Source of the DNA: Escherichia virus TH57
Sequence record: MT446422.1
Reading direction: 5' to 3' (one strand)
DNA: 64,000 nucleotides
In this document: positions 1,690 through 50,861 of the stretch, piece by piece
How the letters are laid out: every line of letters starts with the position of its first letter
Numbering within the stretch: the stretch's first letter is position 1
Translations under genes and position numbers: made by a program
Notes under the pieces: model-generated
Told to the model about the DNA's origin: nothing
What the model saw: only the letters and a program-made list of their open reading frames with translations
Databases searched by the model: none

Positions 1690-2601
1690 ATGTCTATGTT
1701 TAAACGTAAAAACCCTGCTGACCTGGCTGCTTCCCTTAACGCTCTGAAAGGTGGTTCTGGTTTCTCTTCTGACGATAAAAAAGAATGGAAACTGAAAGAT
1801 ACTGATGGCGTCGGTTCTGCGGTTATTCGTTTCCTGCCTTCCAAAAATGAAGAAAATCCATCTCCGTTCATCAAGCTCGTTAATCACGGCTTTAAAAATG
1901 GCGGTCAATGGTATATTGAAAACTGTACTTCTACCCACGGCGATTATGAAAACTGCCCTGTGTGTGCGTACATGAATAAGAATGACCTGTACAACACAAA
2001 CGAATCCGAATATCGTAAACTGAAGCGTAATACTTCTTACTGGGCTAACATCCTGGTCATTAAAGACCCTGCTGTTCCGTCTAACGAAGGTCAAGTATTT
2101 AAATATCGCTTCGGCAAGAAAATCATGGACAAAATTAACCAGATGGTTGAAGTCGATGTTGATATGGGCGAAACAGCTATTGATGTAACTTGTCCTTTTG
2201 AAGGTGCAAACTTTGTACTGAAATCTAAACTGGTTTCCGGTTATAAAAACTACGATGATTCCAAATTCATGAACCAGTCTGAAATCGCTGGTATCAATGA
2301 TGAAGCATTCCAGAAAAAACTTTGGGACGAAATGTCTGACCTGAATGAATTGCTGGTGTTTAAATCCCTTGAAGAGAATCAGAAGAAATTCTCTAAAGTA
2401 ATGGGTACAGCTGCTCTTGGTGGTGCTGCTTCTAAAGCCGCTGCACAAGCTGATAAACTGGGCGCTGACCTGGACGATTTTGATAAAGATATGGAAGACT
2501 TCACTTCCAGCAAACCTGCTAAGTCTGAACGCACTGCGACTGCTCCAAGCACTCCAGAGCCTTCTGATGATGGTCTTGACGACCTGCTGGCTGGCCTTTA
2601 A
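1690..2601 (+). CDS. 32: single-stranded DNA-binding protein gp32
   Basis: 303 aa; N-terminus [61 protein letters not shown] and acidic Asp/Ser-rich C-terminus closely match T4 gp32; strong SD AAGGAAA. Confidence 0.95.
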
Positions 2602-2606
2602 TATAA

Positions 2607-2630
2607 GGGACCTTAGGGTCCCTTTTTTAT
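2607..2630 (+). terminator. Rho-independent terminator after gene 32
   Basis: GGGACC-TTAG-GGTCCC hairpin followed by a T-run. Confidence 0.7.
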
Positions 2631-2643
2631 TTTCAAAAAGTAG

Positions 2644-2672
2644 TGTACAAGTCCTTTGAGCTAAGGCATAAT
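2644..2672 (+). promoter_or_regulatory. T4-type early (sigma70-like) promoter
   Basis: TGTACA, 17 nt, CATAAT; the -10 and downstream leader are nearly identical to the copy at 20986-21034. Confidence 0.55.
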
Positions 2673-2715
2673 GATTCCATACTGAGTTACACGATAAACA
2701 ACTGAGGAAATTAAA

Positions 2716-3084
2716 ATGATGGAAACTGGTAAATTTTATACATTAGACCCTGCTGCCAAAAAACAATTCATCGCTGGTAGCCCTGATGACAATTCGCGCA
2801 TGGTCAAGCTGATGGAACAGCATGGCAGTTCCTTCAAAGTCCTGGATATGTGCTTTATTGATGGCGATTATTTTGTTGAAAAAGTTGAAATGAAAGATGG
2901 TACCATCTTGGATAGTATGGATGATGCTGATGAGTACTTTGAACTCGCTGAATGGGAATTCCGCCACTTCCTGGAAGTTGATGAAGATGCTCCTGTTGTT
3001 GACACGCAAACCATTCATGTGCAGGTTAATCACAAAAATGCTGCTGAAGTCATTGCCTTGATTAAAGCTACCTTTGGAATTTAA
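2716..3084 (+). CDS. hypothetical early protein (paralog family with 3404..3766 and 17128..17670)
   Basis: 122-aa ORF with SD GAGGAAA; shares N-terminal GKFY...AKKQFIAG and C-terminal DDYFEL...EEEF motifs with 3404..3766. Confidence 0.5.
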   Translation: MMETGKFYTLDPAAKKQFIAGSPDDNSRMVKLMEQHGSSFKVLDMCFIDGDYFVEKVEMKDGTILDSMDDADEYFELAEWEFRHFLEVDEDAPVVDTQTIHVQVNHKNAAEVIALIKATFGI

Positions 3085-3340: not shown

Positions 3341-3403
3341 AAAGTTGTTTGCACTATCTTTAAACATGATATTATACCTATCAAAACAAATGAGGAAATT
3401 AAA

Positions 3404-3766
3404 ATGGAAATCGGCAAAAAATATGAGTTCAATCCAAATCGTATTAAATCTTTCATTGATAATAGTTCATCGAATGCTAGTATGGTTGACATCATCCAAG
3501 AAAATGGTGGTTGGTTTGAAGTTAAATCAATATCAAGGGCAGACGGTCTTGATTATGTAACCGAAATCATTTGCGCTAACGGTGCAATCTATAATGATGA
3601 TGGTATGGGTGATGATTATTTTGAACTTAGTGAAGAAGAGTTTTATTGCTTCCGAGAATACTCCAGTTATACAAAAACACCTTCAGGAGCGGTTTCTATT
3701 AATTGTGTTGTAGATGCTAATAACGTCGACCAAATCATTGAACTTCTGCAAAAAGCTTTCAAATAA
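3404..3766 (+). CDS. hypothetical early protein (paralog of 2716..3084)
   Basis: 120-aa ORF, SD GAGGAAA; shares motifs with 2716..3084. Confidence 0.5.
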   Translation: MEIGKKYEFNPNRIKSFIDNSSSNASMVDIIQENGGWFEVKSISRADGLDYVTEIICANGAIYNDDGMGDDYFELSEEEFYCFREYSSYTKTPSGAVSINCVVDANNVDQIIELLQKAFK

Positions 3767-3769
3767 CAG

Positions 3770-3805
3770 TTTACAAAGGGTCTATGGTTGAGATATTATA
3801 GACCT
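3770..3805 (+). promoter_or_regulatory. T4-type early promoter with dyad symmetry across the -10
   Basis: TTTACA, ~17 nt, ATATTA/TATTAT; inverted repeat GGTCTAT...ATAGACC flanks the -10. Confidence 0.45.
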
Positions 3806-3828
3806 ATCAACTACCTGAGGAAAATAAA

Positions 3829-4056
3829 ATGGCTAAAGTTAATATTGATATTGTTGATTTTGAATACACTTACGAAGTTATCCGTAATCGTTATCCTTCT
3901 TTGAGTATGACTTATATTAAAGATACCCAATTCTTCAGTATCCAAATTGAAATCCAAGGTCCTCTTGAAGACCTTACTCGTTTTATGACTGACGAGTATT
4001 GTGATGGTATGCATGTTGAAGATGCTGAATTTTATATGGGCTTAATCCAAAAATAA
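3829..4056 (+). CDS. hypothetical early protein
   Basis: 75-aa ORF with SD GAGGAAAA 7 nt upstream. Confidence 0.45.
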
Positions 4057-4058
4057 AT

Positions 4059-4093
4059 GTTTACAACAGGCTATGGTAATGATACTATAGCCT
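4059..4093 (+). promoter_or_regulatory. T4-type early promoter with dyad symmetry across the -10
   Basis: GTTTACA, 17 nt, TACTAT; inverted repeat AGGCTAT...ATAGCCT. Confidence 0.45.
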
Positions 4094-4114
4094 TACCAAC
4101 TTGAGGAGAATAAA

Positions 4115-4354
4115 ATGAAATTACAACGTGAGAGCATCAAAGATTCAGAAGTTAAAGGTAAATGGTACTTCACAATCCAGGGTAACAATCCAGAAGCTCT
4201 GGAAAAAGCTGAAGAAACTTTGTGTGCAATGGGTTGGAAAGATGAGTGTGATGGTTGTCCTCTTTATGAAGATGGTAGCTCATCTGGTTTCTGGATTCAT
4301 CACTCTGACGTTGACCAATTTAAAGCTGACTGGAAAGTCGCTAAGAAAGCGTGA
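4115..4354 (+). CDS. hypothetical early protein (Cys-containing, 79 aa)
   Basis: ORF with SD GAGGAGAA. Confidence 0.45.
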   Translation: MKLQRESIKDSEVKGKWYFTIQGNNPEALEKAEETLCAMGWKDECDGCPLYEDGSSSGFWIHHSDVDQFKADWKVAKKA

Positions 4355-9537: not shown

Positions 9538-10716
9538 ATGAGTACAGTTTTTAATACCACTCCGGTGGATGTTTTAGCCGAGCCTATGTTTTTTGGTTCA
9601 GGATTGGGGATTGCCCGTTATGATATCCAGCGTCATAAAGTTTTCGAAGAATTAACAGAAAAGCAATTATCATTCTTCTGGCGTCCAGAGGAAGTAAACC
9701 TGATGATGGACGGAGCCCAATTTAATAAGCTTCCTGAACATCAACAAAATATTTTTACCAACAACCTGAAATACCAATCACTTCTGGATAGTATCCAGGG
9801 TCGTGCTCCAGCTGCAGCATTAGCCGCATTAGTTTCTGACCCAAGTCTTGATACATGGATTCAGACCTGGACATTCAGCGAGACAATTCACTCTCGTTCT
9901 TATACGCACATAATGCGAAATCTTTATACGGACCCGGCGAAGGTATTCGACGAAATCCTGTTAGATGATGCAATCATGAAGCGCGCAGAATCCATCGGTC
10001 ATTACTATGATGATGTTCTGAATAAAACTCGTCAATGGCAAAACCAGATTGCTTTTGTTGAACTGGCCAAAGAAACTCCCGAAGCGGACGAACGTTTGGA
10101 ACGAGCTATCAAACAAGAATCTATCGCCAAACGAGCATTGATGAAGTCTCTTTATCTCTGCCTGCATGTCATTAATGCCCTGGAAGCCATTCGTTTTTAT
10201 GTATCTTTTGCTTGTACTTTCAACTTCCATAAGAACATGGAAATCATGGAAGGCAATGCGAAGATAATGAAGTTCATCGCCCGTGATGAACAGCTCCACC
10301 TTAAGGGGACTCAATATATTCTTCGTCAGTTGCAGACTGGTACCGACGGTGACGAATGGGTTAAAATCGCACATGAATGTGAAGCAGAAGCCGCAGCCAT
10401 TTTCATGGAAGTTAATCGCCAGGAAAAAGAATGGGCCGTGCATCTGTTTAAAGATGGTGGACTTCCTGGGTTGAGCGTCGAGATTCTTAACCGGTTCATC
10501 GATTACCTGACGGTTTCTCGTATGAAGCAATGCGGTCTCCCGTGTGAAATCGTGTTAGAATCTACTAAGCACCCGATTCCATGGATTCGCGAATATCTTA
10601 ACTCTGATAATGTGCAATCAGCACCGCAAGAAGTTGAGTTGTCTGCTTACCTGGTAGCCCAGATTGACAATGACGTCGATGAGAACGTTCTTGCTGGTTT
10701 CCGTAAATATCTATAA
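9538..10716 (+). CDS. nrdB: ribonucleoside-diphosphate reductase, beta (small) subunit (uninterrupted, no intron)
   Basis: 392 aa; R2-type sequence with di-iron ligands (ETIHSRSY, ALEAIRFYVSFA, RDEQLH); continuous ORF. Confidence 0.95.
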   Translation: MSTVFNTTPVDVLAEPMFFGSGLGIARYDIQRHKVFEELTEKQLSFFWRPEEVNLMMDGAQFNKLPEHQQNIFTNNLKYQSLLDSIQGRAPAAALAALVSDPSLDTWIQTWTFSETIHSRSYTHIMRNLYTDPAKVFDEILLDDAIMKRAESIGHYYDDVLNKTRQWQNQIAFVELAKETPEADERLERAIKQESIAKRALMKSLYLCLHVINALEAIRFYVSFACTFNFHKNMEIMEGNAKIMKFIARDEQLHLKGTQYILRQLQTGTDGDEWVKIAHECEAEAAAIFMEVNRQEKEWAVHLFKDGGLPGLSVEILNRFIDYLTVSRMKQCGLPCEIVLESTKHPIPWIREYLNSDNVQSAPQEVELSAYLVAQIDNDVDENVLAGFRKYL

Positions 10717-10721
10717 GGAAA

Positions 10722-10738
10722 GGGCTTCGGCCCTTTTT
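10722..10738 (+). terminator. Rho-independent terminator after nrdB
   Basis: GGGCTTCGGCCC hairpin followed by TTTTT. Confidence 0.6.
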
Positions 10739-10742
10739 GTCT

Positions 10743-11153
10743 ATGAAACAAATCGCTGACGAATACAGTTTTATAAAATACGCGGAGTTGGAGTTAGTCG
10801 ATGGTAAAATCCCTATCCTTACTCTCGCAAACAAGAAAAATGTTATCTATGCTATTTCAGTTGATGATGAACTAGTGTATATTGGTAAGACGAACAACCT
10901 TAAGAAGCGTATCAACTATTACCGGACTGCAATTAACCGAATCGAACAGACGAGTGATTCAAACAAATCCCGGATGATACATGAAGCTTTACAAGAAGGC
11001 AAAAAGGTGGTATTCTATGCACGACAATGTTTCAATCTGTCAATGACCAATGAGCTTGGCACGATGTCAGTCGAAACTATGTCTCTGGAAGAGCCGATGT
11101 TCATCAAGCTTTTTAATCCCCCGTGGAATTACCAACATAAGGTGAAGAAATGA
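10743..11153 (+). CDS. denA: endonuclease II (GIY-YIG family)
   Basis: 136 aa from ATG at 10743 (MKQIADEY); GIY-YIG-like VIYAISVDDELVYIGKTNNLKKRINYY; FYARQCFNLSMTNELGT and KLFNPPWN match T4 DenA; position after nrdB as in T4. Confidence 0.8.
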   Translation: MKQIADEYSFIKYAELELVDGKIPILTLANKKNVIYAISVDDELVYIGKTNNLKKRINYYRTAINRIEQTSDSNKSRMIHEALQEGKKVVFYARQCFNLSMTNELGTMSVETMSLEEPMFIKLFNPPWNYQHKVKK

Positions 11154-12286: not shown

Positions 12287-12296
12287 TAAAAAGGGG

Positions 12297-12325
12297 TGTA
12301 CAAGCCCCTCCTTTCTATACATAAT
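12297..12325 (+). promoter_or_regulatory. T4-type early promoter
   Basis: TGTACA, 17 nt, CATAAT; the first ATG of the downstream track ORF lies inside the -10, so the CDS start was moved to 12357. Confidence 0.5.
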
Positions 12326-12356
12326 GGTTCCATCAACTACTGATGAGGACCAAAAC

Positions 12357-12590
12357 ATGTTAAACTTAATTACAAATGACAGAGTTACACAGGCATATGG
12401 TGACAGAAATGATGGAATCTATGTCTACAAGGGAGACCGCCGGATTGGTTTCATTACTGACCTGAAGGCCAAATTGTTAAAAGAATTGAAAGCCCAAACA
12501 AGTGATTCTGGGTTTAGAGCAAGAGCCAAAAAGAAAGATGAGCGCCTGGGTGCCAACTCTTTTGGTCCTAGAGGTTACAACCGCTACTAA
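12357..12590 (+). CDS. hypothetical protein, stand-alone paralog of the N-terminal domain of the following alc-like gene
   Basis: 77 aa from Met 12 (SD GAGGA); YGDRNDGIYVYKGDRRIGFITDLKAKL parallels YGDRHDGIYVYKGTKKIGLMTDLRKKL in 12604..13107. Confidence 0.4.
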   Translation: MLNLITNDRVTQAYGDRNDGIYVYKGDRRIGFITDLKAKLLKELKAQTSDSGFRARAKKKDERLGANSFGPRGYNRY

Positions 12591-13738: not shown

Positions 13739-13843
13739 TTGAGGCGTGTACTGACGGATGGGATATCTTTCGATTTGGTGCTGCATGTTTTTGTTTTGGA
13801 ATCGTGTTTAGCATGTGCATGCATGGTATTTTTGGAAAGTAGT

Positions 13844-13871
13844 GTACAAACTCATGGGAGCAGAGTATAAT
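13844..13871 (+). promoter_or_regulatory. T4-type early promoter
   Basis: TGTACA, 16 nt, TATAAT. Confidence 0.5.
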
Positions 13872-13905
13872 GCTCCTACGGATTATAAAATTTGAGGAAA
13901 TGACT

Positions 13906-17098: not shown

Positions 17099-17127
17099 GA
17101 ATTTCATCGACACATGAGGAAAACAAA

Positions 17128-17670
17128 ATGAGTAATTTCTTTGAAGAAGGCAAGTTTTACAAATTTGTATCTGAAAATGCCAAAAAACAATTTATTGCCG
17201 GAGGCTGGGCAGCTAATTACCAAATTGCTGGATACATCGGTATGACTCCGTTTGAAGTTAAGATTTTACCTGATAATGTTAGCGGCGGTAAAAAAGTTTG
17301 TGAGATTCGTTTGATTGATGAAAATGATTTTGTGGATTTGGCAAAAATATCTGGCACACAGAACAGGCATCATGGAGCAATATTTGTTTCCAATGGTCCT
17401 TTGTCAGATGAATTTGAATATTTCATCCAGGTAGAAGTTGGTGTTAAGCCAGAAGTTGAGCCTGTACCAGCGAAACTTGCATCAGTTTGGAAATTGCTTG
17501 TGGTTAAAAATGGCAAGATTGAGATTAACTCTCGTCATACGTCAAAAGAATACGCGGAAGGCGAAGCCGAGCGTTTGTTAAACCGCGGTACTGCAGAAGA
17601 TTGTTATATTATCAAAGGTGATATCACAAAAGCTTCTATCGTTAAACAAGTAAAACAGGAGACAATCTGA
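17128..17670 (+). CDS. hypothetical protein (N-terminus paralogous to 2716..3084)
   Basis: 180 aa; N-terminal EEGKFYKFVSENAKKQFIAGG matches the GKFY...AKKQFIAG motif of 2716..3084; SD GAGGAAAA. Confidence 0.45.
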   Translation: MSNFFEEGKFYKFVSENAKKQFIAGGWAANYQIAGYIGMTPFEVKILPDNVSGGKKVCEIRLIDENDFVDLAKISGTQNRHHGAIFVSNGPLSDEFEYFIQVEVGVKPEVEPVPAKLASVWKLLVVKNGKIEINSRHTSKEYAEGEAERLLNRGTAEDCYIIKGDITKASIVKQVKQETI

Positions 17671-20551: not shown

Positions 20552-20556
20552 GTTCA

Positions 20557-20581
20557 GGGGCTCTTCGGAGCCCTTTTTTTT
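20557..20581 (+). terminator. Rho-independent terminator
   Basis: GGGCTC-TTCG-GAGCCC hairpin plus 8-T run. Confidence 0.65.
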
Positions 20582-20594
20582 CTAGGAAAATATT

Positions 20595-20951
20595 ATGAAC
20601 GATAGATACAATCACACGTTTACTACACCGCGTGGAGCATCGTATGCAGCGCCTGGTCTGGAGCCATACAATGCAATTCCGGAACATCATCCTGCTGCAT
20701 ATGTTCCACCAAGCCCTCCGATATACACACCACCTGCGAAACCGTATGACGATGCAATTTATCTTGTCGCTTTCTTAAGTGAAGCTGGTACACAAGACCG
20801 GGGCTGTCAACGTTCTGGTTTGCTTACTGAACTGGAAGCACATAAACGCGCCAGAGAATGGATTGAGACAAATCCAAAGGGTGAAGCTATTGTAATGAAA
20901 GCCAAAAACTTCTATACAGCTGAAGTAACCCATAAAATAATTATCAAATGA
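20595..20951 (+). CDS. hypothetical protein (Pro-rich N-terminal half)
   Basis: 118-aa ORF between two terminators. Confidence 0.4.
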   Translation: MNDRYNHTFTTPRGASYAAPGLEPYNAIPEHHPAAYVPPSPPIYTPPAKPYDDAIYLVAFLSEAGTQDRGCQRSGLLTELEAHKRAREWIETNPKGEAIVMKAKNFYTAEVTHKIIIK

Positions 20952-20976
20952 CTCCTTCGGGAGTCTTTTTTTTTTT
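20950..20976 (+). terminator. Rho-independent terminator
   Basis: GACTCC-TTCG-GGAGTC hairpin plus 11-T run. Confidence 0.7.
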
Positions 20977-20985
20977 CATAAAAGG

Positions 20986-21014
20986 TGTACAACAGGATTT
21001 GCCCAGTGCATAAT
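20986..21014 (+). promoter_or_regulatory. T4-type early promoter (second copy of the 2644-2672 cassette)
   Basis: TGTACA, 17 nt, CATAAT; 27-nt block GCATAATGATTCCATACTGAGTTACAC identical to 2666-2692. Confidence 0.55.
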
Positions 21015-21055
21015 GATTCCATACTGAGTTACACAATAAAACACTGGAGAATAAA

Positions 21056-21424
21056 ATGAAAATCAATCTTAACTCATACATCAAAGGTAAAGACCACGAC
21101 GGTTACAAAGCCATTGAAACTAAAGAGATGCAATGGCACTTGTATAAAGAACAGTTTGAATTTGTTGGTTGCATGACTCCTGAAGGTCCTTCTGATGACT
21201 TCTCTTGGAAAATTATGGTAACAAACTTTTTTACTGGTGATACCTACGAACTGAAAACTATCATAACCGGTAAGATTCGTTGTAAGACCTATGAAGATGA
21301 AGAAACTGGTTATTCTGAAGATGTTACATGGTATCAAAATGGTCGCAATACTGCTGATGATTTGATTGAAAAAATGAAAGCTAAGGGTGAATTAAATTTA
21401 GATAATTGGATTAAAGTCGCATAA
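21056..21424 (+). CDS. hypothetical protein
   Basis: 122-aa ORF, SD GGAGAA. Confidence 0.4.
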   Translation: MKINLNSYIKGKDHDGYKAIETKEMQWHLYKEQFEFVGCMTPEGPSDDFSWKIMVTNFFTGDTYELKTIITGKIRCKTYEDEETGYSEDVTWYQNGRNTADDLIEKMKAKGELNLDNWIKVA

Positions 21425-21428
21425 AACA

Positions 21429-21468
21429 GTTTACTTTGGTACAGGTTATGATATTATAGACCTGTACC
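21429..21468 (+). promoter_or_regulatory. T4-type early promoter with 9-bp perfect inverted repeat across the -10
   Basis: GTTTAC, 17 nt, TATTAT; GGTACAGGT ... ACCTGTACC flank the -10. Confidence 0.45.
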
Positions 21469-21495
21469 AACAAATGAAAACAACTGGAGAATAAA

Positions 21496-22382: not shown

Positions 22383-22595
22383 ATGTTTAAGAAATTGATT
22401 CAGAAGATTTTGGGCACAGAAATGGTTGAAGTGACTTATCGCGTGACCGACGTAAGTCCATGGGCCCGAAATATTGAACCATATACTAAAACAATTAAAA
22501 TGCTGAAATCTGACGGCGGATTATCTATTAAAGACCGTCTACCTGGTTATGGTCATTGGGCTGATGTAGAGATTATCAGTGTCAAAGATATTTAA
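22383..22595 (+). CDS. hypothetical 70-aa protein, tandem paralog A
   Basis: MFKKLIQKILGTEMVEVTYRVTD...SIKDRLPGYGHW...IISVKDI parallels the next ORF. Confidence 0.45.
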   Translation: MFKKLIQKILGTEMVEVTYRVTDVSPWARNIEPYTKTIKMLKSDGGLSIKDRLPGYGHWADVEIISVKDI

Positions 22596-22604
22596 GGAAC
22601 CTTC

Positions 22605-22817
22605 ATGATTAATAAATTATTTAAAAAGCTGTTTGGCTTGGAAATGGTTGAAGTGACTTATCGTGTTATTGATTTATCACCGCCATATGCTTGCGATGAA
22701 GATGCTATTAAAACTGTTGTTATGCGAAAAACATATCGCGGGCGGTCAATTAAAGAAAGATTGCCAGACCATGGCATGTGGTATGCAACCAAGATTATCA
22801 GTGTCAAAGATGTCTGA
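22605..22817 (+). CDS. hypothetical 70-aa protein, tandem paralog B
   Basis: MINKLFKKLFGLEMVEVTYRVID...SIKERLPDHGMW...IISVKDV. Confidence 0.45.
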   Translation: MINKLFKKLFGLEMVEVTYRVIDLSPPYACDEDAIKTVVMRKTYRGRSIKERLPDHGMWYATKIISVKDV

Positions 22818-24370: not shown

Positions 24371-25918
24371 GTGATTATGATTTTAGATATTTTAAATGAA
24401 ATTGCTGCAACCGATTCCACTAAAGAGAAACAAGCTATCCTGGAATCGTATTCTGACAATGAAACCCTTAAACGCGTGTATCGTTTGACATATTCCAAAG
24501 GCATCCAGTTCTATATCAAGAAATGGCCAAAACCTGGGACAACGACTCAAAGCTTTGGTATGTTGAATATCGATGATATGCTTGACTTTATCGAATTTAC
24601 ATTGGCCTCTCGCAAATTGACAGGTAATGCTGCAATCGAGGAATTATCTGGCTATATTGCTGATGGTAAAAAAGCAGATGTTGAAGTTCTTCGCCGTGTG
24701 ATGATGCGTGACCTGGAATGCGGGGCATCCGTATCAATTGCAAATAAGGTTTGGAAAGGTTTAATTCCTGAACAACCGCAGATGCTTGCTTCTTCCTATG
24801 ATGAAGCCGGTATTGCCAAGAACATTAAGTTCCCGGCCTTTGCGCAATTGAAAGCCGACGGTGCTCGGTGTTTTGCAGAAGTTCGTGGCGATGAGTTGGA
24901 TGATGTTCGATTGTTATCCCGAGCTGGCAACGAATACCTCAAGCTTGACCTCCTTAAAAAGGAATTAATTGAAGCCACCCGTGAAGCGCGTGAGAGACAC
25001 CCTGAGGGCGTTTTAATTGATGGTGAGTTAGTATACCATGAACAGAAAGTAGCTCCCCAGAATGACGGTTTGGGCTTCCTTTTTGACGATATGCCTGAGC
25101 TTAGCAAGGCAAAAGAATTCGAGGAATTCGCGGAATCAAGAACCTTTTCAAATGGTCTGGCAAACAAATCATTGAAAGGAACTATTTCTGCAGCAGAAGC
25201 TTCTTGCATGAAATTCCAGGTTTGGGATTATGTTCCGCTGATTGAAGTCTATTCTGATGTTAAGATTCTCAATCCGTTGAAATACGATGTGCGTTTTGCT
25301 GTTCTGGAAAAAATGATTGCAGATAACGTGGTGCTGCACGGTTTTGACCGCATGATTCTGATTGAAAACCATGTTGTTAACAATCTCGATGAAGCGAAGG
25401 TTATCTATAAGAAATATGTGGATGAAGGTCTTGAAGGTATTATCCTTAAGAACATGGCATCGATTTGGGAAAACAAGCGCTCCAAGAACTTGTACAAGTT
25501 CAAAGAAGTAATTGACATTGCAATGGAAATCATTGGATATTACGAGCACGATAAAGACCCGAATAAGATTGGCGGTGTTGTGCTTCGTTCTTCTTGTGGT
25601 AAGATTACGAATAACTGTGGTTCTGGTTTTAAAGACACAACTCAAGTCAAAGATAAGAAAACCAAAAAATGGGTTACTATTCCGATTGAGAAGCGTCATG
25701 AAATGGACCGTGAAGCCTTGATGGTTAAAGCTCGTAAAGGTGAATTGGTTGGAATGATTGCTGACTGTGAATGTAATGGTTGGGTGACTTCCGAGACTCG
25801 TAAAGATAATACGGTTGCATTGTTCCTGCCGATTATCAAAGGGTTCCGTTTCGATAAAGACCATGCAGACACATTCGAAGATGTATTTGGCGACTGGTCA
25901 AAGACTGGGTTAAAATAA
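24371..25918 (+). CDS. 30: ATP-dependent DNA ligase
   Basis: 515 aa; ILNEIAATDSTKEKQAILE, adenylation motif FAQLKADGARCFAEV, VLIDGELV, GLEGIILK; long stretches match T4 gp30. Confidence 0.95.
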   Translation: MIMILDILNEIAATDSTKEKQAILESYSDNETLKRVYRLTYSKGIQFYIKKWPKPGTTTQSFGMLNIDDMLDFIEFTLASRKLTGNAAIEELSGYIADGKKADVEVLRRVMMRDLECGASVSIANKVWKGLIPEQPQMLASSYDEAGIAKNIKFPAFAQLKADGARCFAEVRGDELDDVRLLSRAGNEYLKLDLLKKELIEATREARERHPEGVLIDGELVYHEQKVAPQNDGLGFLFDDMPELSKAKEFEEFAESRTFSNGLANKSLKGTISAAEASCMKFQVWDYVPLIEVYSDVKILNPLKYDVRFAVLEKMIADNVVLHGFDRMILIENHVVNNLDEAKVIYKKYVDEGLEGIILKNMASIWENKRSKNLYKFKEVIDIAMEIIGYYEHDKDPNKIGGVVLRSSCGKITNNCGSGFKDTTQVKDKKTKKWVTIPIEKRHEMDREALMVKARKGELVGMIADCECNGWVTSETRKDNTVALFLPIIKGFRFDKDHADTFEDVFGDWSKTGLK

Positions 25919-25923
25919 CAAAA

Positions 25924-25941
25924 GGGCTTCGGCCCTTTTTT
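25924..25941 (+). terminator. Rho-independent terminator after ligase
   Basis: GGGCTTCGGCCC hairpin plus TTTTTT. Confidence 0.65.
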
Positions 25942-25943
25942 AG

Positions 25944-25951
25944 TATAAATA
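25944..25951 (+). promoter_or_regulatory. T4 late promoter (TATAAATA) for alt
   Basis: Plus-strand TATAAATA ~25 nt upstream of the alt ATG. Confidence 0.5.
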
Positions 25952-28070: not shown

Positions 28071-28101
28071 GTTCATATTAATTGCACATGAGGAAAACAA
28101 A

Positions 28102-28392
28102 ATGAAATCATCTTTTCGCTTTAATGGCCAGGAACTGGTAGTTGAGAATGTTATCCCGGCTTCAGAAGAGTTTGACAGCGCAGTGGGTAATGAATTACGC
28201 CGTGTATTTGGTGAAGATAAGAAGTTTGACCTTCGCCCTGTTGAAAACTTTGTAAATTCTGAACAAACAGAAAATATTTTTAATGGCGTAGTAACTGGAC
28301 AACTTGAATCTGAAGCACCAATTGCAATTACAGTATTTGCTAAGAAAGAAGCTGTAATGACTGCAGCAGGTTTCATTTCATTCCGCAAATAA
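28102..28392 (+). CDS. hypothetical protein
   Basis: Track ORF 27979..28392 overlaps the alt 3' end; start placed at Met 42 after SD GAGGAAAA. Confidence 0.4.
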   Translation: MKSSFRFNGQELVVENVIPASEEFDSAVGNELRRVFGEDKKFDLRPVENFVNSEQTENIFNGVVTGQLESEAPIAITVFAKKEAVMTAAGFISFRK

Positions 28393-28418
28393 AAAAGGGA
28401 CCTTCGGGTCCCTTTTTT
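28391..28418. terminator. Bidirectional hairpin terminator between the early block and gene 54
   Basis: A-run, GGGACC-TTCG-GGTCCC, T-run; stem identical to the hairpins at 2607 and 40363. Confidence 0.7.
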
Positions 28419-28419
28419 A

Positions 28420-29379
28420 TTATAATATACGTTGACTTCCACCAGAGAGTGTTCTCCCAGAACCAGTAAACGTATTGTATAGACTTGTTAATCCAGATTG
28501 AGCACCAGACAAGCGACTCAATTTGGCAACTTCTGCGTTCAAGTTGTTATCTGAACTAATACCAGATACACCTTTAATAACCTTATCTTCCAACCATTCC
28601 AATGCTGCAGCTCTTCCCACCGCACCAGTTGACATAACGCGATAAGCAAAAGTCACATCAAATGTAGCTATCTGATTATCCCCTTCATAGCTCAATTCAG
28701 GCGCTGATACACTTACAGGAACACAACCAGTTAACATAACAACCGTATGCGGCAATCCGTTACGTGAGTGCAGGTTAACCTGAATATCAGCTTCAACGTC
28801 TTCAGGCAAAGCCCTTAGCTGGGTAACTGGGTCCTGTACAGAGTTAACCCAATCGTTAAATGCTCTGAAGTTCCCTGCCTCTGAATCCATTCTAAAGCTC
28901 AATACCAACGGAGAATATTCTCTCCCTGTTATCTTGATATTTGGCGCATTATGGTTAAGGTCCATTTCGTAGTTCAATGTGTTATCCGGAAGCTTAACAG
29001 AGTGAACTAATAGACCAGCCGTTGGATAAGCCATATTAAAGAAATCAAGCAGGTAAGTACCAACCTCAAATTCACCTAATAATGATTGCACAACACGGTT
29101 ACTCATTGCACCGATAAGATATTTGCTTATCCCTGATTTACGAATAAGCTTTTGTGTTCCGGCAGTAACAAGAGTTGTTATCCCTTGAGTTAAGTCGCCT
29201 TGCGTTAAACCAAACCAATCTGAGTTAACAGGAAGGTTGCTAAATAATGCTCCGCCAAACTGGTCCAGAAGATTCTGAGATTTGGAGGAAGGTGTGGTCG
29301 CGAAGACCACACTAAAAAGGTTATTCCTTTGTAAGTCGATATTAATCGCCTGCGTTTGGAATTCTTGTAAAGTAAACAT
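28420..29379 (-). CDS. 54: baseplate tail-tube initiator gp54
   Basis: 319 aa; extended match to T4 gp54 (NIDLQRNNLFSVVFATTPSSKSQNLLDQFGG, DIQVNLHSRNGLPHT). Confidence 0.9.
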   Translation of the reverse strand: MFTLQEFQTQAINIDLQRNNLFSVVFATTPSSKSQNLLDQFGGALFSNLPVNSDWFGLTQGDLTQGITTLVTAGTQKLIRKSGISKYLIGAMSNRVVQSLLGEFEVGTYLLDFFNMAYPTAGLLVHSVKLPDNTLNYEMDLNHNAPNIKITGREYSPLVLSFRMDSEAGNFRAFNDWVNSVQDPVTQLRALPEDVEADIQVNLHSRNGLPHTVVMLTGCVPVSVSAPELSYEGDNQIATFDVTFAYRVMSTGAVGRAAALEWLEDKVIKGVSGISSDNNLNAEVAKLSRLSGAQSGLTSLYNTFTGSGRTLSGGSQRIL

Positions 29380-35287: not shown

Positions 35288-35677
35288 ATGAATATAAACA
35301 AAATGTATAGCGATGTGTCTCCTGACTTGTCAATGAGTTGGGATAAAGACGTTGCTAAAGTAACCGGTGCAAGGTCTGTTAAGAACAGTCTTCTGGGTAT
35401 AATCACCACAAGAAAAGGGTCAAGGCCTTTTATGCCTGAATTTGGATGTGATATAAGTAATCAGCTTTTTGAGAATATCACACCATTAATCACAGATACC
35501 ATTAAACGCAACATCGTCTCCGCGGTGCGGAACTTCGAACCAAGGATAAGCAATTTACAGGTTGCAGTTGTCCCTATGTATGATGATAACTCCATTATCG
35601 TAACGGTTCAGTTTAGCATTGTTGATGACCCTGACACCCTCGAACAAATCAGGATTCAGTTAAGTCAAAACGGTTAA
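35288..35677 (+). CDS. 25: baseplate wedge subunit gp25
   Basis: 129 aa; LLGIITTRKGSRPFMPEFGCD matches T4 gp25. Confidence 0.9.
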   Translation: MNINKMYSDVSPDLSMSWDKDVAKVTGARSVKNSLLGIITTRKGSRPFMPEFGCDISNQLFENITPLITDTIKRNIVSAVRNFEPRISNLQVAVVPMYDDNSIIVTVQFSIVDDPDTLEQIRIQLSQNG

Positions 35678-35702
35678 TGCTTTAATTTTATGGCTGTATA
35701 AT
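35678..35702 (+). promoter_or_regulatory. T4-type middle promoter for uvsY (MotA box TGCTTTA)
   Basis: AATGCTTTA, 12 nt, TATAAT, followed by conserved GGTTCTAGACCC; starts right after the gene 25 stop. Confidence 0.6.
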
Positions 35703-35730
35703 GGTTCTAGACCCTTACATTGGATACATT

Positions 35731-39221: not shown

Positions 39222-40355
39222 ATGGCTTATACCGTAGATATTGCTCCTTTGGCGGCCACAGCCGTTATTGGAGCAACAACCAATTTCACTGCGACCGGTT
39301 CCGGTGCTGCAGCTGAAGGTACCGAATCATTTGTTTGGACCGTTGATGGCGTTCCTCAATCTTCTGTGACTGCTGCAATGGATTATGTTGCTGTTGGTCC
39401 AGCAGGCAGTAAGACTATTAAAGTTGTTGCAACTACCACTCCGGCAGACGGCGAACCAGAAACTGCTGAGGCTGAGACAACTTTAACTATCCAGAATAAA
39501 ACAATGCCGGCAATCACGCTGACTTTAGACCCAGCCTCTGTTACTAAAGAAATAGGACAATCTCAAGTTGTTACAGCTAATATTAGCGGGCAACCAGATG
39601 GAGCGTCCGCTTCTTATGTATGGAAACGAAATGCTGACGTAATCCCAGGGCAAACTGGTAAAACAATCACCATCACCGAATCGGCTGAAGCAAATTATAC
39701 ATTGAACTGTGAAGTTACTGTTTCAGCAACAGATTATGATAATGGCACCGCAACTAAAAGCGCAGTAGTTACCTTTGTTAAGAAAACTATGTCAGGTGTT
39801 TCTGTTACATTAACCCCAGAATCAATTAATGTTCCGGAAGGTACCCCGGCTTCTTTTAAAGCGGATGTAGTCGGCGCACCTAGTGGAGCTACTTTTGCCT
39901 ATTCTTGGAAGAAAGATGGTTCTCCTGTAGTTGGCACCACGGATACTCTAGCAATCGACACAAGCACCGAAGGTTCCCAGGTTATTGAAGTTTCTGTTGT
40001 GGTTTCGGCGACTGATTATGACCCGGCGACTGTCACAAAAACCGGTAATGTAACAGTCACGGCTAAAGTCGCACCAGTTCCAGATGGCGAATTACCTTAT
40101 GTTCATCCATTGCCGGTACGTAATTCAGCTTATATCTGGTGTGGTTGGTGGGTTATGGATGAAATTCAGAAAATGGCTCTTGCCGGGCAAGACTGGAAAA
40201 CCGATGCCCCAGATAGCCCATATTATTTGCACCGATACACACTTCAAAAAATGATTACCGACTATCCAGAGGTTGATGTACAAGAATCTCGTAATGGTCG
40301 AATTATTCATCGCACCGCTTTAGAAGCTGGTATTATATACGATTACGTTTATTAA
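39222..40355 (+). CDS. hoc: highly immunogenic outer capsid protein Hoc (Ig-like repeats)
   Basis: 377 aa; repeated Ig-like modules; C-terminal capsid-binding region ELPYVHPLPVRNSAYIWCGWWVMDEIQKM matches T4 Hoc. Confidence 0.85.
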   Translation: MAYTVDIAPLAATAVIGATTNFTATGSGAAAEGTESFVWTVDGVPQSSVTAAMDYVAVGPAGSKTIKVVATTTPADGEPETAEAETTLTIQNKTMPAITLTLDPASVTKEIGQSQVVTANISGQPDGASASYVWKRNADVIPGQTGKTITITESAEANYTLNCEVTVSATDYDNGTATKSAVVTFVKKTMSGVSVTLTPESINVPEGTPASFKADVVGAPSGATFAYSWKKDGSPVVGTTDTLAIDTSTEGSQVIEVSVVVSATDYDPATVTKTGNVTVTAKVAPVPDGELPYVHPLPVRNSAYIWCGWWVMDEIQKMALAGQDWKTDAPDSPYYLHRYTLQKMITDYPEVDVQESRNGRIIHRTALEAGIIYDYVY

Positions 40356-40362
40356 TTAAAAA

Positions 40363-40387
40363 GGGACCTTCGGGTCCCTTTATTTTT
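40363..40387 (+). terminator. Rho-independent terminator after hoc
   Basis: GGGACC-TTCG-GGTCCC hairpin plus T-run. Confidence 0.7.
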
Positions 40388-40474
40388 ATGGTACTGAGCA
40401 AACGTTGCCTGGGCCCCTTTCTCCGGTAAGTCCTTGTGGCCACCATAACAATTGTTCATCTGGCATAAAAACAT

Positions 40475-40725: not shown

Positions 40726-40985
40726 CATTTGCAGAAGAACTACGCCAAATAGCCAAAGAGTCACAAGATAAAGTTGCAAATGACTTTATTGCTATATTTC
40801 GCAAAGTGGCTATTGCCGCTGCCGAGAATGGCAAAGATGCTGTTAATATGGCAGTTTCTGAAAAAGAGTATGAAGAAGGAAACCGCGCAAAGATATCTGA
40901 ATTTCTGCGGGCAGAAAAATTTACATCATTTACCTGGAATTATGACTGGCAAGAAGCCAAGCCAATGCTGTATGTAAAATTCTGA
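40722..40985 (+). CDS. hypothetical protein
   Basis: 87-aa ORF with ATGA overlap to upstream gene. Confidence 0.4.
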   Translation: MTFAEELRQIAKESQDKVANDFIAIFRKVAIAAAENGKDAVNMAVSEKEYEEGNRAKISEFLRAEKFTSFTWNYDWQEAKPMLYVKF

Positions 40986-40992
40986 CCCTTTT

Positions 40993-41018
40993 TGCTTCAA
41001 ATAAAAATGCGGTATAAT
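40993..41018 (+). promoter_or_regulatory. T4-type middle promoter (MotA box TGCTTCA) upstream of rnlB
   Basis: TTTGCTTCA, 13 nt, TATAAT, followed by conserved GGTTCTAGACCC. Confidence 0.55.
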
Positions 41019-41114
41019 GGTTCTAGACCCTTTGTGACTATTAATTCCTTTCAGAGAAAGAAAGTATAGTGGGTCTAATTTATAATGATATTTATAACAT
41101 CAAAGTGAGAGATT

Positions 41115-42122: not shown

Positions 42123-42150
42123 AAAGGGCCGCAAGGCCCTTATTCTTTTT
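42121..42150. terminator. Bidirectional hairpin terminator between rnlB and the gene 24 paralog
   Basis: A-run, GGGCC-GCAA-GGCCC, T-rich run. Confidence 0.6.
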
Positions 42151-43423
42151 CCAGTGGTGGAAGTTTAACACCAAGATAAGAACTCAATTGGCTTTGGTTG
42201 GCCATCTTATCCATATCAGCTCCATCAATAATGCGAGCTTCTTTATCATCTTTAGCAACCGTGTAAGGGTTCGCTGTCAATGCATAACGAGCTAACAGTG
42301 CAACCGTAGGCTGTAAGCTTTCAGGGTCAACAATAACCTTGAATTCCCCAACCGAGGTATCACCCTCATCATCAACTTCGCTAAGCCCTTCCGTATAAGG
42401 CGCATAATACAAAGATGCGACCGTCTGACCCTCGCCCATATCCGCATTTACACCAACAATAACATAATCGCATGGACTATTCATATCTGCATAAAGAGGC
42501 AAACCGTTCTTCAGAACACCATAGGCCAATTCATCCTGGTCTTCCTTTTTCTCAACCCAACCAGAAGCGGCTAAAATAGCTGCACAACGGGAAGAAGCAA
42601 CCGCATATGTACCAGCAAACGAAGTCTGACGTTGAACTGCAGAATTCATTTCACACATATAATAATACAGGGTTCGTGCGCGGTCCTGTGCGTTATCATA
42701 TTTCGGGTCAGTGAGATTCAACACACCTTTTTCAGAAACACCTTGGACCTTGAAGCGGGAACTAACAGTAATAAGGGATTGCAATACATCCTTATTAATT
42801 TCCTCTGCCATTTGAATGCCGAGAATATTATCGATGAAGTCTGTTGCATCGAAACCGTTTGCTTCCAGGTCCTGGGCAAGCTCGACAGTTAAAGAAGTTT
42901 TCAACTTTCTGGATTTAACTTCAGTCTGCCATTTATCGATACGGAAACCAGCTTCAGCAATTTCAGGATGCCCCTTTTCAAATTTATCAGTGAAAGCAGC
43001 ATCTGACATCATTCTTATATGTCCAGCAGCAATGGCTTCAGAAATAACTTCACCTAAATCAGTTTCGAGTGTCCCGGCAAAGGGAGAAGCTTCCAGAACT
43101 TTGAATACAACGCTTTCAAACTGAAACATATCGCCGACTGCATAAGCTTCGTCTTTGTTCGTAAATTCTGGGATATTCTTACGCTCGAACATACCAATCT
43201 GGCCCGCGAATGTTGCTCCACCGAGATAAGTCATTTTATCATCTGGGTTCAGAACACGAACACCATACAGCGCTGCAACAGGCTGGGTAGTTTTCTGTTC
43301 GGCCACGAGTGCTTTAAAAATTCGTTTATTCGTAGCCTGGGTATAAGAAAGCAAATTAGGACGGGCGACCTGGTTGGCCGCCGTTAATGTTGATTCATGA
43401 ATTAGTGCATTAATCTTTTGCAT
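42140..43423 (-). CDS. capsid vertex protein gp24 paralog (divergent second copy)
   Basis: 427 aa, gp23/gp24 fold family; shares blocks with the adjacent copy (KSRKLKT.LTVELAQD.EANGF, EINKDVLQSLITVS, YAPYTEGL, LARYALTANPYTVAKDDKEARIID) but is more diverged from T4 gp24. Confidence 0.75.
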   Translation of the reverse strand: MQKINALIHESTLTAANQVARPNLLSYTQATNKRIFKALVAEQKTTQPVAALYGVRVLNPDDKMTYLGGATFAGQIGMFERKNIPEFTNKDEAYAVGDMFQFESVVFKVLEASPFAGTLETDLGEVISEAIAAGHIRMMSDAAFTDKFEKGHPEIAEAGFRIDKWQTEVKSRKLKTSLTVELAQDLEANGFDATDFIDNILGIQMAEEINKDVLQSLITVSSRFKVQGVSEKGVLNLTDPKYDNAQDRARTLYYYMCEMNSAVQRQTSFAGTYAVASSRCAAILAASGWVEKKEDQDELAYGVLKNGLPLYADMNSPCDYVIVGVNADMGEGQTVASLYYAPYTEGLSEVDDEGDTSVGEFKVIVDPESLQPTVALLARYALTANPYTVAKDDKEARIIDGADMDKMANQSQLSSYLGVKLPPLEKE

Positions 43424-44704
43424 TTACGCCTCATAAATGATTGGCGGAAGTTTAACACCGAGCAGATAAGACATGTTGCTCTGACCGGCCATTAAATCCA
43501 TATTGGTTGCATCGATAATACGAGCTTCTTTATCGTCTTTAGCAACGGTGTAAGGGTTGGCTGAAAGTGCATATCGAACCATCAAGGAGATAGATGGCTG
43601 CAAGCTGTCTGGGTCCACAATGACCTTAAACGCACCTACGTGTTCTTCATCATCTAAGTCCAGGCCTTCGGTATAAGGAGCATAGAAGATTGAGCCTACG
43701 ACTTCGTTTCCGCCGTAATTTTCTTTAACGCCAACGGTTACATAATCCAATGGACTGTTAACATCACAGAATACAGGGAGGCCATTAATCAAATAACCGT
43801 ACGCTGTTTCAGGAAGCCATTGTTCATCTTCTGGTTTATGTTTCAGCCACCCAGAACCGGCCAGCATAGCAGCAACACGGCTAGAGGCAACAACAAAGGT
43901 ACCGGAATAAGATGTAGTTTTCTGAATTTCGGAGTTCATTTCGCAAACCAGTTCATACAGTTTACGTGCGCCTTCTGGAGCTGCATCATATGTTAAATCG
44001 ATGGTGCCATTGTCAGAAACGCCAGTTACTTTATAACGCTTGGAAACGGTAATAAGAGACTGAAGAACATCTTTGTTAATTTCATCTGCCATAATAGTAG
44101 CAAGCAGGTCTTCCAGGAAAGCAGGAGCATTAAAGCCATTTGCTTCCATATCCTGAGCAAGTTCAACAGTTAATGCAGTTTTCAATTTACGGGATTTAAC
44201 AGGAGCATTCCATTTATTAACCTGGAATACAGCATTGCTAATTTCAACATCACCGGCTTCGAATTTTTCGGTGTGTGCAGCATCAGGAACTAAACGAATA
44301 GTCGATGCAATAAGACCTTCTTGCAGAACATCAGATAACACTGTTTCTGTGGTCGATGCAAATGGATTATCAACCAGAGCTTTATAAACGATATTCTGGA
44401 ATTTAATGTATCCGCCTTTAGCTACGGCCTGAGTTGGGGTTGTAAATTCCGGAATAGTTGTACGGTCTTTTGAACCAACTTCACCACCATAAGTAGCACC
44501 AGTCTGGAAACTGAATTCATTATCAGGAGTAAGATATTTAACACCGTACAGAGCCGCAACTGGCTGGTTAGTACGTTGTTCAGCGATAATATCGCGGTAA
44601 ATCAATTTGGTTGTAGCACGGGTCAAAGCAACAAGATTCGGGCGGCCCAAGGAGTTGCTGGTAGTAATAGTTGACTCGCGCAGTAATTTGTTAATCTTTG
44701 CCAT
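43424..44704 (-). CDS. 24: capsid vertex protein gp24
   Basis: Start at Met 14 (MAKINKLLRES as in T4); close match to T4 gp24 throughout. Confidence 0.9.
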   Translation of the reverse strand: MAKINKLLRESTITTSNSLGRPNLVALTRATTKLIYRDIIAEQRTNQPVAALYGVKYLTPDNEFSFQTGATYGGEVGSKDRTTIPEFTTPTQAVAKGGYIKFQNIVYKALVDNPFASTTETVLSDVLQEGLIASTIRLVPDAAHTEKFEAGDVEISNAVFQVNKWNAPVKSRKLKTALTVELAQDMEANGFNAPAFLEDLLATIMADEINKDVLQSLITVSKRYKVTGVSDNGTIDLTYDAAPEGARKLYELVCEMNSEIQKTTSYSGTFVVASSRVAAMLAGSGWLKHKPEDEQWLPETAYGYLINGLPVFCDVNSPLDYVTVGVKENYGGNEVVGSIFYAPYTEGLDLDDEEHVGAFKVIVDPDSLQPSISLMVRYALSANPYTVAKDDKEARIIDATNMDLMAGQSNMSYLLGVKLPPIIYEA

Positions 44705-44744
44705 TTGCGCTTTCCTTTTGTGATATACTTTATTTATTCCCAAT

Positions 44745-44769
44745 AAAAAAGGGACTCCGAAGAGTCCCT
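44745..44769 (-). terminator. Rho-independent terminator downstream of gene 23
   Basis: Plus-strand A-run then GGGACTC ... GAGTCCC; on the minus strand hairpin plus T-run. Confidence 0.6.
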
Positions 44770-44784
44770 GAAATTTATTAAGGA

Positions 44785-50726: not shown

Positions 50727-50801
50727 CTAGGTAATATGATTCATCAATAAATGTATTTAGGTCGCTGGGGGAGCTCTGAGGAGTCCGTAGAACCGATGAT
50801 A

Positions 50802-50827
50802 TGCTTTTATTTATAGCATTGTATAAT
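50802..50827 (+). promoter_or_regulatory. Middle-promoter-like element on the plus strand (antisense to the HNH gene); also reads as a minus-strand late promoter
   Basis: ATGCTTTT, 13 nt, TATAAT, then GGTTCTACGG resembling the conserved element; the same bases contain TATAAATA on the minus strand (50808-50815). Confidence 0.35.
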
Positions 50828-50861
50828 GGTTCTACGGTTTACTGCTTAATTACATTTACTG

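Follow-up and report, generated by a model that had tools for sequence, protein, structure and literature searches.

The window analysed here is a stretch of 64,000 nucleotides from Escherichia virus TH57 (MT446422.1), a T4-like phage of the genus Gaprivervirus, the SP18/VR7 group. Two places in it, one between gene 32 and frd.2 (copy A) and one in front of gene 30.8 (copy B), carry the same succession of hairpin, early-type promoter and leader. The question raised by this arrangement is whether it records a single duplication or membership in a larger class of regulatory elements, and what keeps a short block just past the -10 hexamer invariant. As developed below, each copy is very likely a regulatory cassette of the kind described in T4-like phages as the promoter-early stem-loop (PeSL) element. 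The best local matches are TH54 at the B locus (99.3%) and ECML-359 at the A locus (97.5%); since the two loci have different best matches, the genome is a mosaic which is absent as such from the phage collection.

Sequence and layout of the two copies

In each copy a hairpin with its T-run is followed by an A-rich tract, the sequence TGTACA-17-CATAAT, a leader, an SD and an ATG (Table 1). The preliminary description of this DNA had reported an identical 27-nt block in two copies, each preceded by a hairpin terminator and followed by an unrelated gene, and both copies were found where it had placed them. The block, GCATAATGATTCCATACTGAGTTACAC, is present exactly at 2666-2692 and 21008-21034, which is twice in the window against an expected count of 0. 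No other match with up to 3 mismatches was found on either strand of the window, a scan that allowed up to 8 mismatches returned the same two sites and no others, and 100 dinucleotide shuffles produced 0 matches. When the copies are compared element by element, they are identical at 6/6 positions of the -35 hexamer TGTACA, at 6 of the 17 positions of the spacer, at 6/6 positions of the -10 hexamer CATAAT, and at 20/20 positions of the 20 nt that follow, so that the identity is not confined to the hexamers. Beyond these 20 nt the A-rich leaders are alike, with small indels, as far as the SD and ATG, and the ungapped repeat as a whole is 44 nt long at 89% identity. The leader, which had been put at ~45 nt, comes to ~35-37 nt if the start is taken ~7 nt past the -10.

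The tract 5' of the -35 reads TTTTTTATTTTCAAAAAGTAG in copy A and T11-CATAAAAGG in copy B. Both putative terminators, the hairpin at 2605-2624 (8 bp, then T-rich) and that at 20950-20965 (6 bp, UUCG loop, T11), pass a terminator scan; both persist in predicted folds, the copy B hairpin being kept in the MFE and centroid folds. In T4-type middle promoters a MotA box, (a/t)(a/t)TGCTT(t/c)a, with its centre near -30, replaces the -35; the spacer of neither copy contains TGCTT, and the genuine MotA-box sites of the window differ in appearance from both. The proteins encoded behind the two copies, both of 122 aa, give a BLASTP E value of 2.4 and belong to different Pfam families (PF03197 FRD2 and PF06019 Phage_30_8), and paralogy of the downstream genes was on these grounds rejected as the source of the identity. 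A host origin or mimicry of the cassette was rejected as well, a blastn comparison with 5,426 E. coli genomes having returned no match.

Table 1. Positions of the two cassettes, the genes next to them and related elements in the window
Feature	Position	Strand	Basis or remark
Gene 32	1690-2601		
Copy A stem-loop AAGGGACCTTAGGGTCCCTT and TTTTATTTTCAAAAAGTAG (T-run, A/T-rich tract)	2605..2643	+	directly 3' of gene 32 stop
Copy A promoter TGTACA-17-CATAAT	2644..2672	+	sequence
Copy A 27-nt identical block; core 2679-2689	2666..2692	+	sequence match
Copy A rest of leader, SD GAGGA (2704-2708), frd.2b ATG	2693..2718	+	sequence
frd.2b, 122 aa, PF03197 FRD2, behind copy A	2716..3084	+	Pfam
Early promoter 3348-3375, then frd.2a paralog (3404-3766)	within 3348..4118	+	neighbouring cassette-bounded module
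Early promoter 3770-3799, then frd.3 (3829-4056)	within 3348..4118	+	neighbouring cassette-bounded module
Early promoter 4060-4088, then frd.1 (from 4115)	within 3348..4118	+	neighbouring cassette-bounded module
Diverged relative: stem-loop GGGG-TGTACA-AGCCCCT over -35, 17 nt, CATAATGGTTCCATCAACTACTGAT (second leader type), SD, ATG	12292..12358	+	
First stem-loop and T8 after gene 30.9	20556..20583	+	left edge of 30.6A insertion; counterpart of single hairpin in phages without 30.6A
Accessory gene 30.6A, 118 aa; own SD, no own promoter	20595..20951	+	found in some relatives only
Copy B stem-loop GACTCCTTCGGGAGTC (6 bp, UUCG loop) and T11; predicted terminator/attenuator	20950..20976	+	directly after 30.6A stop
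Copy B promoter: A-rich CATAAAAGG, -35 TGTACA 20986-20991, 17-nt spacer, -10 CATAAT 21009-21014	20977..21014	+	
Copy B 27-nt block; core ATACTGAGTTA 21021-21031; predicted start A 21021	21008..21034	+	
Copy B rest of leader, A-rich, SD GGAG (21046-21049), gene 30.8 ATG (21056-21058)	21035..21058	+	
Gene 30.8, 122 aa, PF06019 Phage_30_8, behind copy B	21056..21424	+	Pfam

A family of about twelve cassettes

An exact-match scan of IMG/VR with GCATAATGATTCCATACTGAGTTACAC found 5 occurrences in VR26, 4 in VR20 and 4 in VR25, in five gene contexts. A scan with the 14-mer CCATACTGAGTTAC was discarded, since it returned mostly chance matches on unrelated contigs and only the three VR phages were informative. 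The comparison is based on one complete relative genome, that of VR26, and a dozen loci. A mismatch-tolerant scan of this genome detected 12 copies, all on the early-transcribed strand. The 11-mer core of the block, ATACTGAGTTA, has 12 occurrences in VR26, where 0.08 would be expected, and each of them is followed by an SD and ATG. The layout of the family is T[GT]TAC[AT]-17-[CT]ATAAT-G[AT]T[TC]CC-ATACTGAGTTA-C..-SD-ATG, and the genes served in VR26 are the ORF ahead of motA, srd, frd.2, 30.8, nrdC.8, the ORF after gene 41, an ORF between g23 and g24, and three consecutive small ORFs at 65.5-66.6 kb which have one cassette each.

These cassettes belong to a wider set. VR26 has ~33 early-promoter-like cassettes, roughly a third of which carry the conserved leader of the window copies (type I), and another 8-9 of which carry a second conserved leader, C[CT]ATCAACTAC (type II); ~10 early-promoter cassettes are present in the window at 1-28 kb. 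Every Gaprivervirus in the phage collection has 10-13 places that match a 49-nt consensus. Between 1 and 4 such places are present in Dhakavirus IME341, Morganella phage MP1 and a few further phages, with an intact core (CCCATACTGAGTTAAC) and different flanks. The two window stretches are thus members of a family of ~12 copies per Gaprivervirus genome and not a one-off duplication.

Gene gain, loss and reordering at the cassettes

Full-length 30.6A is found in only five phage records. Of 12 orthologous loci, those of the window, SP18 and phage 212 alone have the gene, and it is present in TH54 and C6 besides. In phages that lack it the order is 30.9, one hairpin with T-run, the same promoter and leader, and 30.8; in the window the order is 30.9, hairpin 1 with T8, SD and 30.6A, hairpin 2 with T11, promoter, and 30.8. 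Because two units of hairpin and T-run flank 30.6A, the variable module is bounded by the stem-loop/T-run part of the cassette, and since it is bounded by these and not by two promoters, its insertion needs only terminator homology, unless an old gene was deleted instead; this counts against the PeSL reading of that event. Hairpin 2 of copy B is identical to the single hairpin of the 30.9-30.8 spacer of T4. In Mosigvirus JN02 a homolog of the C-terminal half of 30.6A lies in another slot, downstream of 30.7. In P479 the B copy reads ACATAAT...GTTACCAAAT, with variants typical of other paralogs, and this indicates an ectopic (paralog-type) conversion tract.

As a separate observation, the 19 nt between the 30.9 hairpin and 30.6A contain an SD and no promoter. 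Expression of 30.6A would then have to come from read-through of the 30.9 hairpin, which would imply that this hairpin attenuates rather than fully terminates transcription.

At the A locus the interval from gene 32 to frd.2b is 400-700 bp longer in most relatives. The gene-32 hairpin and promoter of SP18, CJ20 and VR25 are the same as those of the window base for base up to CATAATGATTCCAT (window 2667-2680), past which their leader becomes CAACT[AG]CTGAT...; in the window and in VR26 the leader runs on as ACTGAGTTACAC... and the gene is frd.2b. The gene-32-proximal promoter would drive frd.2a in SP18 and CJ20 and another paralog in VR25. The switch in sequence falls between the -10 and the SD. 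The modules, each of which has its own early promoter at its start (3348, 3770 and 4060 in the window), are also permuted: the order is g32, frd.2b, 254, frd.2a, frd.3, frd.1 in the window and g32, frd.2a, frd.3, frd.2b, 254 in CJ20, and the window order is permuted with respect to SP18 as well. The diverged cassette at 12292-12358 has the leader type of the gene-32-proximal cassette of SP18 and CJ20. It may be added that the FRD2-family (PF03197) paralogs frd.2b and frd.2a stand in the window in the order opposite to that of CJ20 and SP18, and that the first slot of VR25 is occupied by a third, shorter FRD2 paralog of 85 aa.

A third site of variation is found in VR26, where a type I cassette and an ORF (the gp250 module) are inserted after GTGATATACTTTATTTA between g23 and g24, and the window is without the module. 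In both VR26 and VR7 a cassette with a 93-aa ORF lies on the opposite strand between these late genes (VR26 104780-105126); at 44737-44785 the window has the left flank GTGATATACTTTATTTA as in VR26, yet only a hairpin there.

With the 30.6A indel at copy B and the permutation of frd.2 modules at copy A, both window copies lie at places of gain, loss or reordering of small accessory genes, in line with the modular gene shuffling invoked in the preliminary description. The two copies are not each other's recombination partners, since they lie 18.3 kb apart with gene 31, nrdAB and td between them and recombination between them would probably be lethal.

Relation to known PeSL elements

A PeSL is defined by a sigma-70-type early promoter with A/T-rich sequence upstream of it, a stem-loop for which five positions with respect to the promoter are distinguished, and a 3' SD and ATG; such elements are repeated in hyperplastic regions and are associated with indels between close relatives (PMC2839356, PMC4122927). 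For the PeSLs of RB49 and phi1, promoter activity, terminator activity and the formation of mini-circles were shown, and the crossovers of the RB49 mini-circles were mapped to the interval from the -10 to the SD/ATG (Arbiol et al. 2010, PMC2839356). The window cassettes have an early promoter of ~17-bp spacing (2644-2672 and 20986-21014), an A/T-rich tract 5' of the -35 in both copies, a predicted stable stem-loop able, by its sequence, to terminate or attenuate (2605-2624 and 20950-20965), and an SD and start codon at the 3' end (GAGGA...ATG at 2704-2718 and GGAG...ATG at 21046-21058). They are repeated across the genome, mainly among small non-essential early genes, and indels or replacements have their breakpoints within the element (30.6A, the frd.2 permutation and leader switch, and gp250). 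A fit to the PeSL definition at the level of sequence is supported on every point, and the description of the cassettes as PeSL-like appears sound with respect to their architecture, their multi-copy family, their location in variable regions and the breakpoints within the cassette at both copies.

The RB49/phi1 PeSLs (PMC2839356) share with the window cassettes the composite build of stem-loop, A/T tract, sigma-70-type promoter and 3' SD and ATG, the repetition in hyperplastic regions, where they flank genes that differ between close relatives, and the interval from the -10 to the SD/ATG in which their crossovers and the leader switch of the A locus fall. They also share a varying position of the stem-loop, which in the present family and in neighbouring promoters lies 5' of the -35 (copies A and B), covers the -35 (window 12292 and VR26 65548) or brackets the -10 (window 3770, 4060, 13843 and 21430, and VR26 169077, 46203 and 45615). 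At these last three VR26 sites the conserved block has its reverse complement in the spacer. RB49 differs in its promoter (TTGACA-17-TATAAT), in its G(n)/C(n) stems and in genus, and the invariant block of 11-20 nt right after the -10 in the Gaprivervirus family is absent from the descriptions in the PeSL papers.

The PeSLs of T4 and PST (Comeau et al. 2014, PMC4122927) have the consensus TTTACW-N17-TAYWAT, to which each window hexamer has one mismatch (5/6 and 5/6), and a stem-loop just upstream; the -35 of the orthologs in VR7 and VR26 is TTTACA. At orthologous positions T4 has cassettes of hairpin and promoter after gene 32, before 30.8 and before motA.1, of which the one downstream of gene 32 and the one upstream of motA have near-identical sequences; VR26 has type I cassettes at both of these loci. 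T4 early promoters have consensus regions beyond the hexamers (Hinton 2010, PMC2988021). The sequence past the -10 in T4 is TACTAT followed by ACAACTATCAACTAC, unlike that of the window cassettes, and the core ATACTGAGTTA is absent from the 50 kb of T4 that were examined. Since the T4 cassettes are alike among themselves and lack ATACTGAGTTA, each lineage has its own homogenised cassette. The same layout, in nearly the same sequence (GGTGTACA-17-CATAATGATCCCATACTGAGTTAAC), is found in Morganella phage vB_MmoM_MP1 (NC_031020, genus Gualtarvirus), at 4 places only; there the motif is the depositors' MEME-derived annotation of a putative promoter, with an annotated rho-independent terminator upstream. 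A search of the literature available to the analysis found no description of these promoters in VR7 or Gaprivervirus. The cassettes are a lineage-specific form of the PeSL phenomenon already described, and they extend PeSL-type mobile regulatory cassettes to the Gaprivervirus lineage.

Proposed mechanism

By analogy with the RB49/phi1 PeSLs and the T4 early promoters that have been tested, the cassettes would have both promoter and terminator activity. The hairpin would act as an intrinsic terminator or attenuator which ends the upstream transcription unit, and the A/T-rich tract with TGTACA-17-CATAAT would form a sigma-70-type early promoter, from which transcripts are predicted to start at A21021 and A2679. 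The promoter-anchored block would cover the discriminator and the first ~14 transcribed bases, to be followed by an A-rich unstructured leader, the SD and the ATG. Such a cassette would give the small gene downstream its own immediate-early expression, insulated from its neighbours. With ~12 near-identical copies in the same orientation, present also in co-infecting relatives, short homology tracts would be available, and recombination within them could insert, delete or reorder promoter-plus-gene modules without loss of expression.

The loci described here offer clean natural examples of the process, in the form of one gene-32-proximal promoter with different genes in different isolates, permuted modules and a conversion tract. 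They speak for the idea that T4-like phages use portable promoter/terminator units to exchange small accessory genes while expression is kept, and they are relevant to the turnover of host-range and anti-defence genes and to the annotation and engineering of therapeutic coliphages.

Nature of the conserved block

The preliminary description had suggested that the leader may also be a shared translational operator. In VR26 the core ATACTGAGTTA lies 6 nt past the -10 in 12/12 copies and 18-34 nt from the ATG, it overlaps the SD in none of them, and the leaders between block and SD fall into different subfamilies. A structured leader RNA was rejected, because the leaders fold no better than shuffles (z of -0.01 and -0.43), as was membership in a known RNA family, a search of Rfam 15 at gathering score over window 1-29000 having given 0 matches. 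Since the core is fixed relative to the -10, variable relative to the ATG, unstructured and without a match in Rfam, the block is a part of the promoter rather than of the ribosome-binding site, and the suggestion of a translational operator is accordingly disfavoured. The translational operators of T4 (the RegA sites and the gene 32 operator) likewise consist of sequence that several early mRNAs have in common in their 5' UTRs, but they overlap the SD/AUG or form a defined structure, whereas the block of the window is anchored to the -10 and unstructured, and shows neither overlap with the SD/AUG nor a fixed position or structure relative to it.

More generally, the block could be an RNA element in a common 5' UTR, to which a RegA-like repressor, an RNase or an sRNA binds and so co-regulates translation. 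We consider this improbable in view of the register just described, the divergence of the leader subfamilies, the lack of structure and of Rfam matches, and the SD of copy A, which is GAGG and not GGAG. On the other side, the block would be transcribed if the predicted start holds, it does not vary among 12 paralogs whose coding sequences are unrelated and is conserved in three genera, the GGAG SD of most members is the RegB cleavage motif known from T4, and an RNA signal at the 5' end, at a constant distance from the start, is still conceivable.

The explanation that we favour for the invariance is that the block is an initial transcribed sequence optimised for a very tightly bound promoter, with conversion among copies contributing to its uniformity. 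A C-A at -1/+1 would place the invariant stretch at +1 to +11, and +11 is the RNA length at which polymerase escapes the promoter. T4's own sequence past the -10, the near-identity of its cassettes and the TATAAT-GGTTCTAGACCC of MotA-box promoters are consistent with this explanation. A second, overlapping promoter, TTGACC-16-CATACT, was also considered and dropped, its putative -35 being good in only 3-4 of the 12 copies.

The block might instead be a DNA site for a phage protein, either a repressor that shuts off a regulon of ~12 immediate-early genes, or else a nuclease or recombinase acting on cassette junctions. Its conservation is sharp-edged and perfect (11/11 in 12 paralogs) next to a spacer that is free to vary, and extends across genera; it is present on about a third of early promoters only, as expected of a regulon; and the leader switch of the A locus lies inside it, after CATAATGATTCCAT. 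We nonetheless regard such a site as quite improbable: there is no dyad symmetry in the block, the copies are linked to neither a candidate binding protein nor an endonuclease gene next to them, and other promoter classes too have their own sequence past the -10, CTATCAACTAC in an early type and GGTTCTAGACCC at MotA-box promoters, which points to a general promoter-proximal constraint rather than to a special operator.

A further possibility is that the identity is a mere by-product of recent copying by a one-off duplication or gene conversion and that the block is under no selection. Across 12 orthologous B loci the hexamers are kept, and variable sites make up 5/47 of block and leader, 5/17 of the spacer and 29/124 of third codon positions. 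The difference between 5/47 and 29/124 is in the direction expected of extra constraint and not significant (Fisher p=0.085), so that the test is weak, a point in favour of mere copying. Conversion between paralogs does occur, as the P479 variant indicates, and the same loci hold another, lineage-specific cassette in T4, as they would under concerted evolution. Copying without selection is nevertheless extremely improbable, given that the core is invariant in twelve contexts per genome with unrelated spacers and genes, that the same core is present in Dhakavirus IME341 and Morganella phage MP1 despite different flanks, and that conversion tracts are unlikely to stop at the same base in every copy.

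While the spacer beside it drifts, the block stays conserved, both among the ~12 paralogs of a genome and across three Straboviridae genera. That CC-ATACTGAGTTA is a distinct sequence-specific signal, beyond a strong promoter and recombination homology, whether as an RNA tag, a DNA operator or a crossover point, is in our estimation unlikely. If it were so, CC-ATACTGAGTTA would be a 5' mRNA tag or DNA operator defining a co-regulated set of ~12 immediate-early genes that includes srd, the gene ahead of motA, 30.8 and frd.2, or alternatively the preferred crossover point of a dedicated cassette-exchange mechanism. As an optimised initial transcribed sequence, anchored to the promoter, invariant and lineage-specific, the block may provide a small lead on what makes these very strong promoters work.

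Other promoters, repeats and hairpins in the window

Three middle promoters of the MotA-box type (TGCTT, 12-13 nt, TATAAT) are present on the + strand at 35647-35720, 40963-41040 and 50772-50850. They have the same sequence past the -10, TATAATGGTTCTA, followed in two of them by GACCCTT, so that early cassettes are not the only promoters with a conserved initial transcribed sequence specific to their class. Two different genes are preceded by the same 21-nt SD/start region, CACATGAGGAAAACAAAATGA, at 17111-17131 and 28085-28105; each has its own early promoter in front (17071 and 28042), and the pair forms another shared leader subfamily.

The inverted repeats which bracket the -10 are GGGTCTAT...ATAGACC at 3770-3815, AGGCTAT...ATAGCCT at 4060-4100, GGAGC...GCTCC at 13843-13885 and, upstream of 30.7, an 11-bp pair TTGGTACAGGT...ACCTGTACCAA at 21430-21475, of which T4 (record position 129917) and Mosigvirus JN02 have conserved counterparts. 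Both arms of these repeats would be present in read-through transcripts only.

Two pairs of adjacent similar genes were also found. Tandem gp24 (capsid vertex) paralogs, annotated in VR26 as capsid vertex proteins I and II, lie on the - strand at 42140-43423 and 43424-44743 and share a 198-nt stretch at 74% identity. The adjacent 70-aa ORFs at 22383-22595 and 22605-22817 are 79% identical over their first 62 nt, and look like a tandem duplication in the 30.4/30.5 region.

Near-identical terminator hairpins GGGACCTTCGGGTCCC, with A- and T-runs on their two sides, occur at 2598-2633, 28388-28423 and 40354-40389, and another near-identical pair, AAAGGGCTTCGGCCCTTT, at 10713-10747 and 25915-25949. 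The stem-loop parts are themselves repeated families, and could provide homology for recombination, as at the 30.6A insertion.
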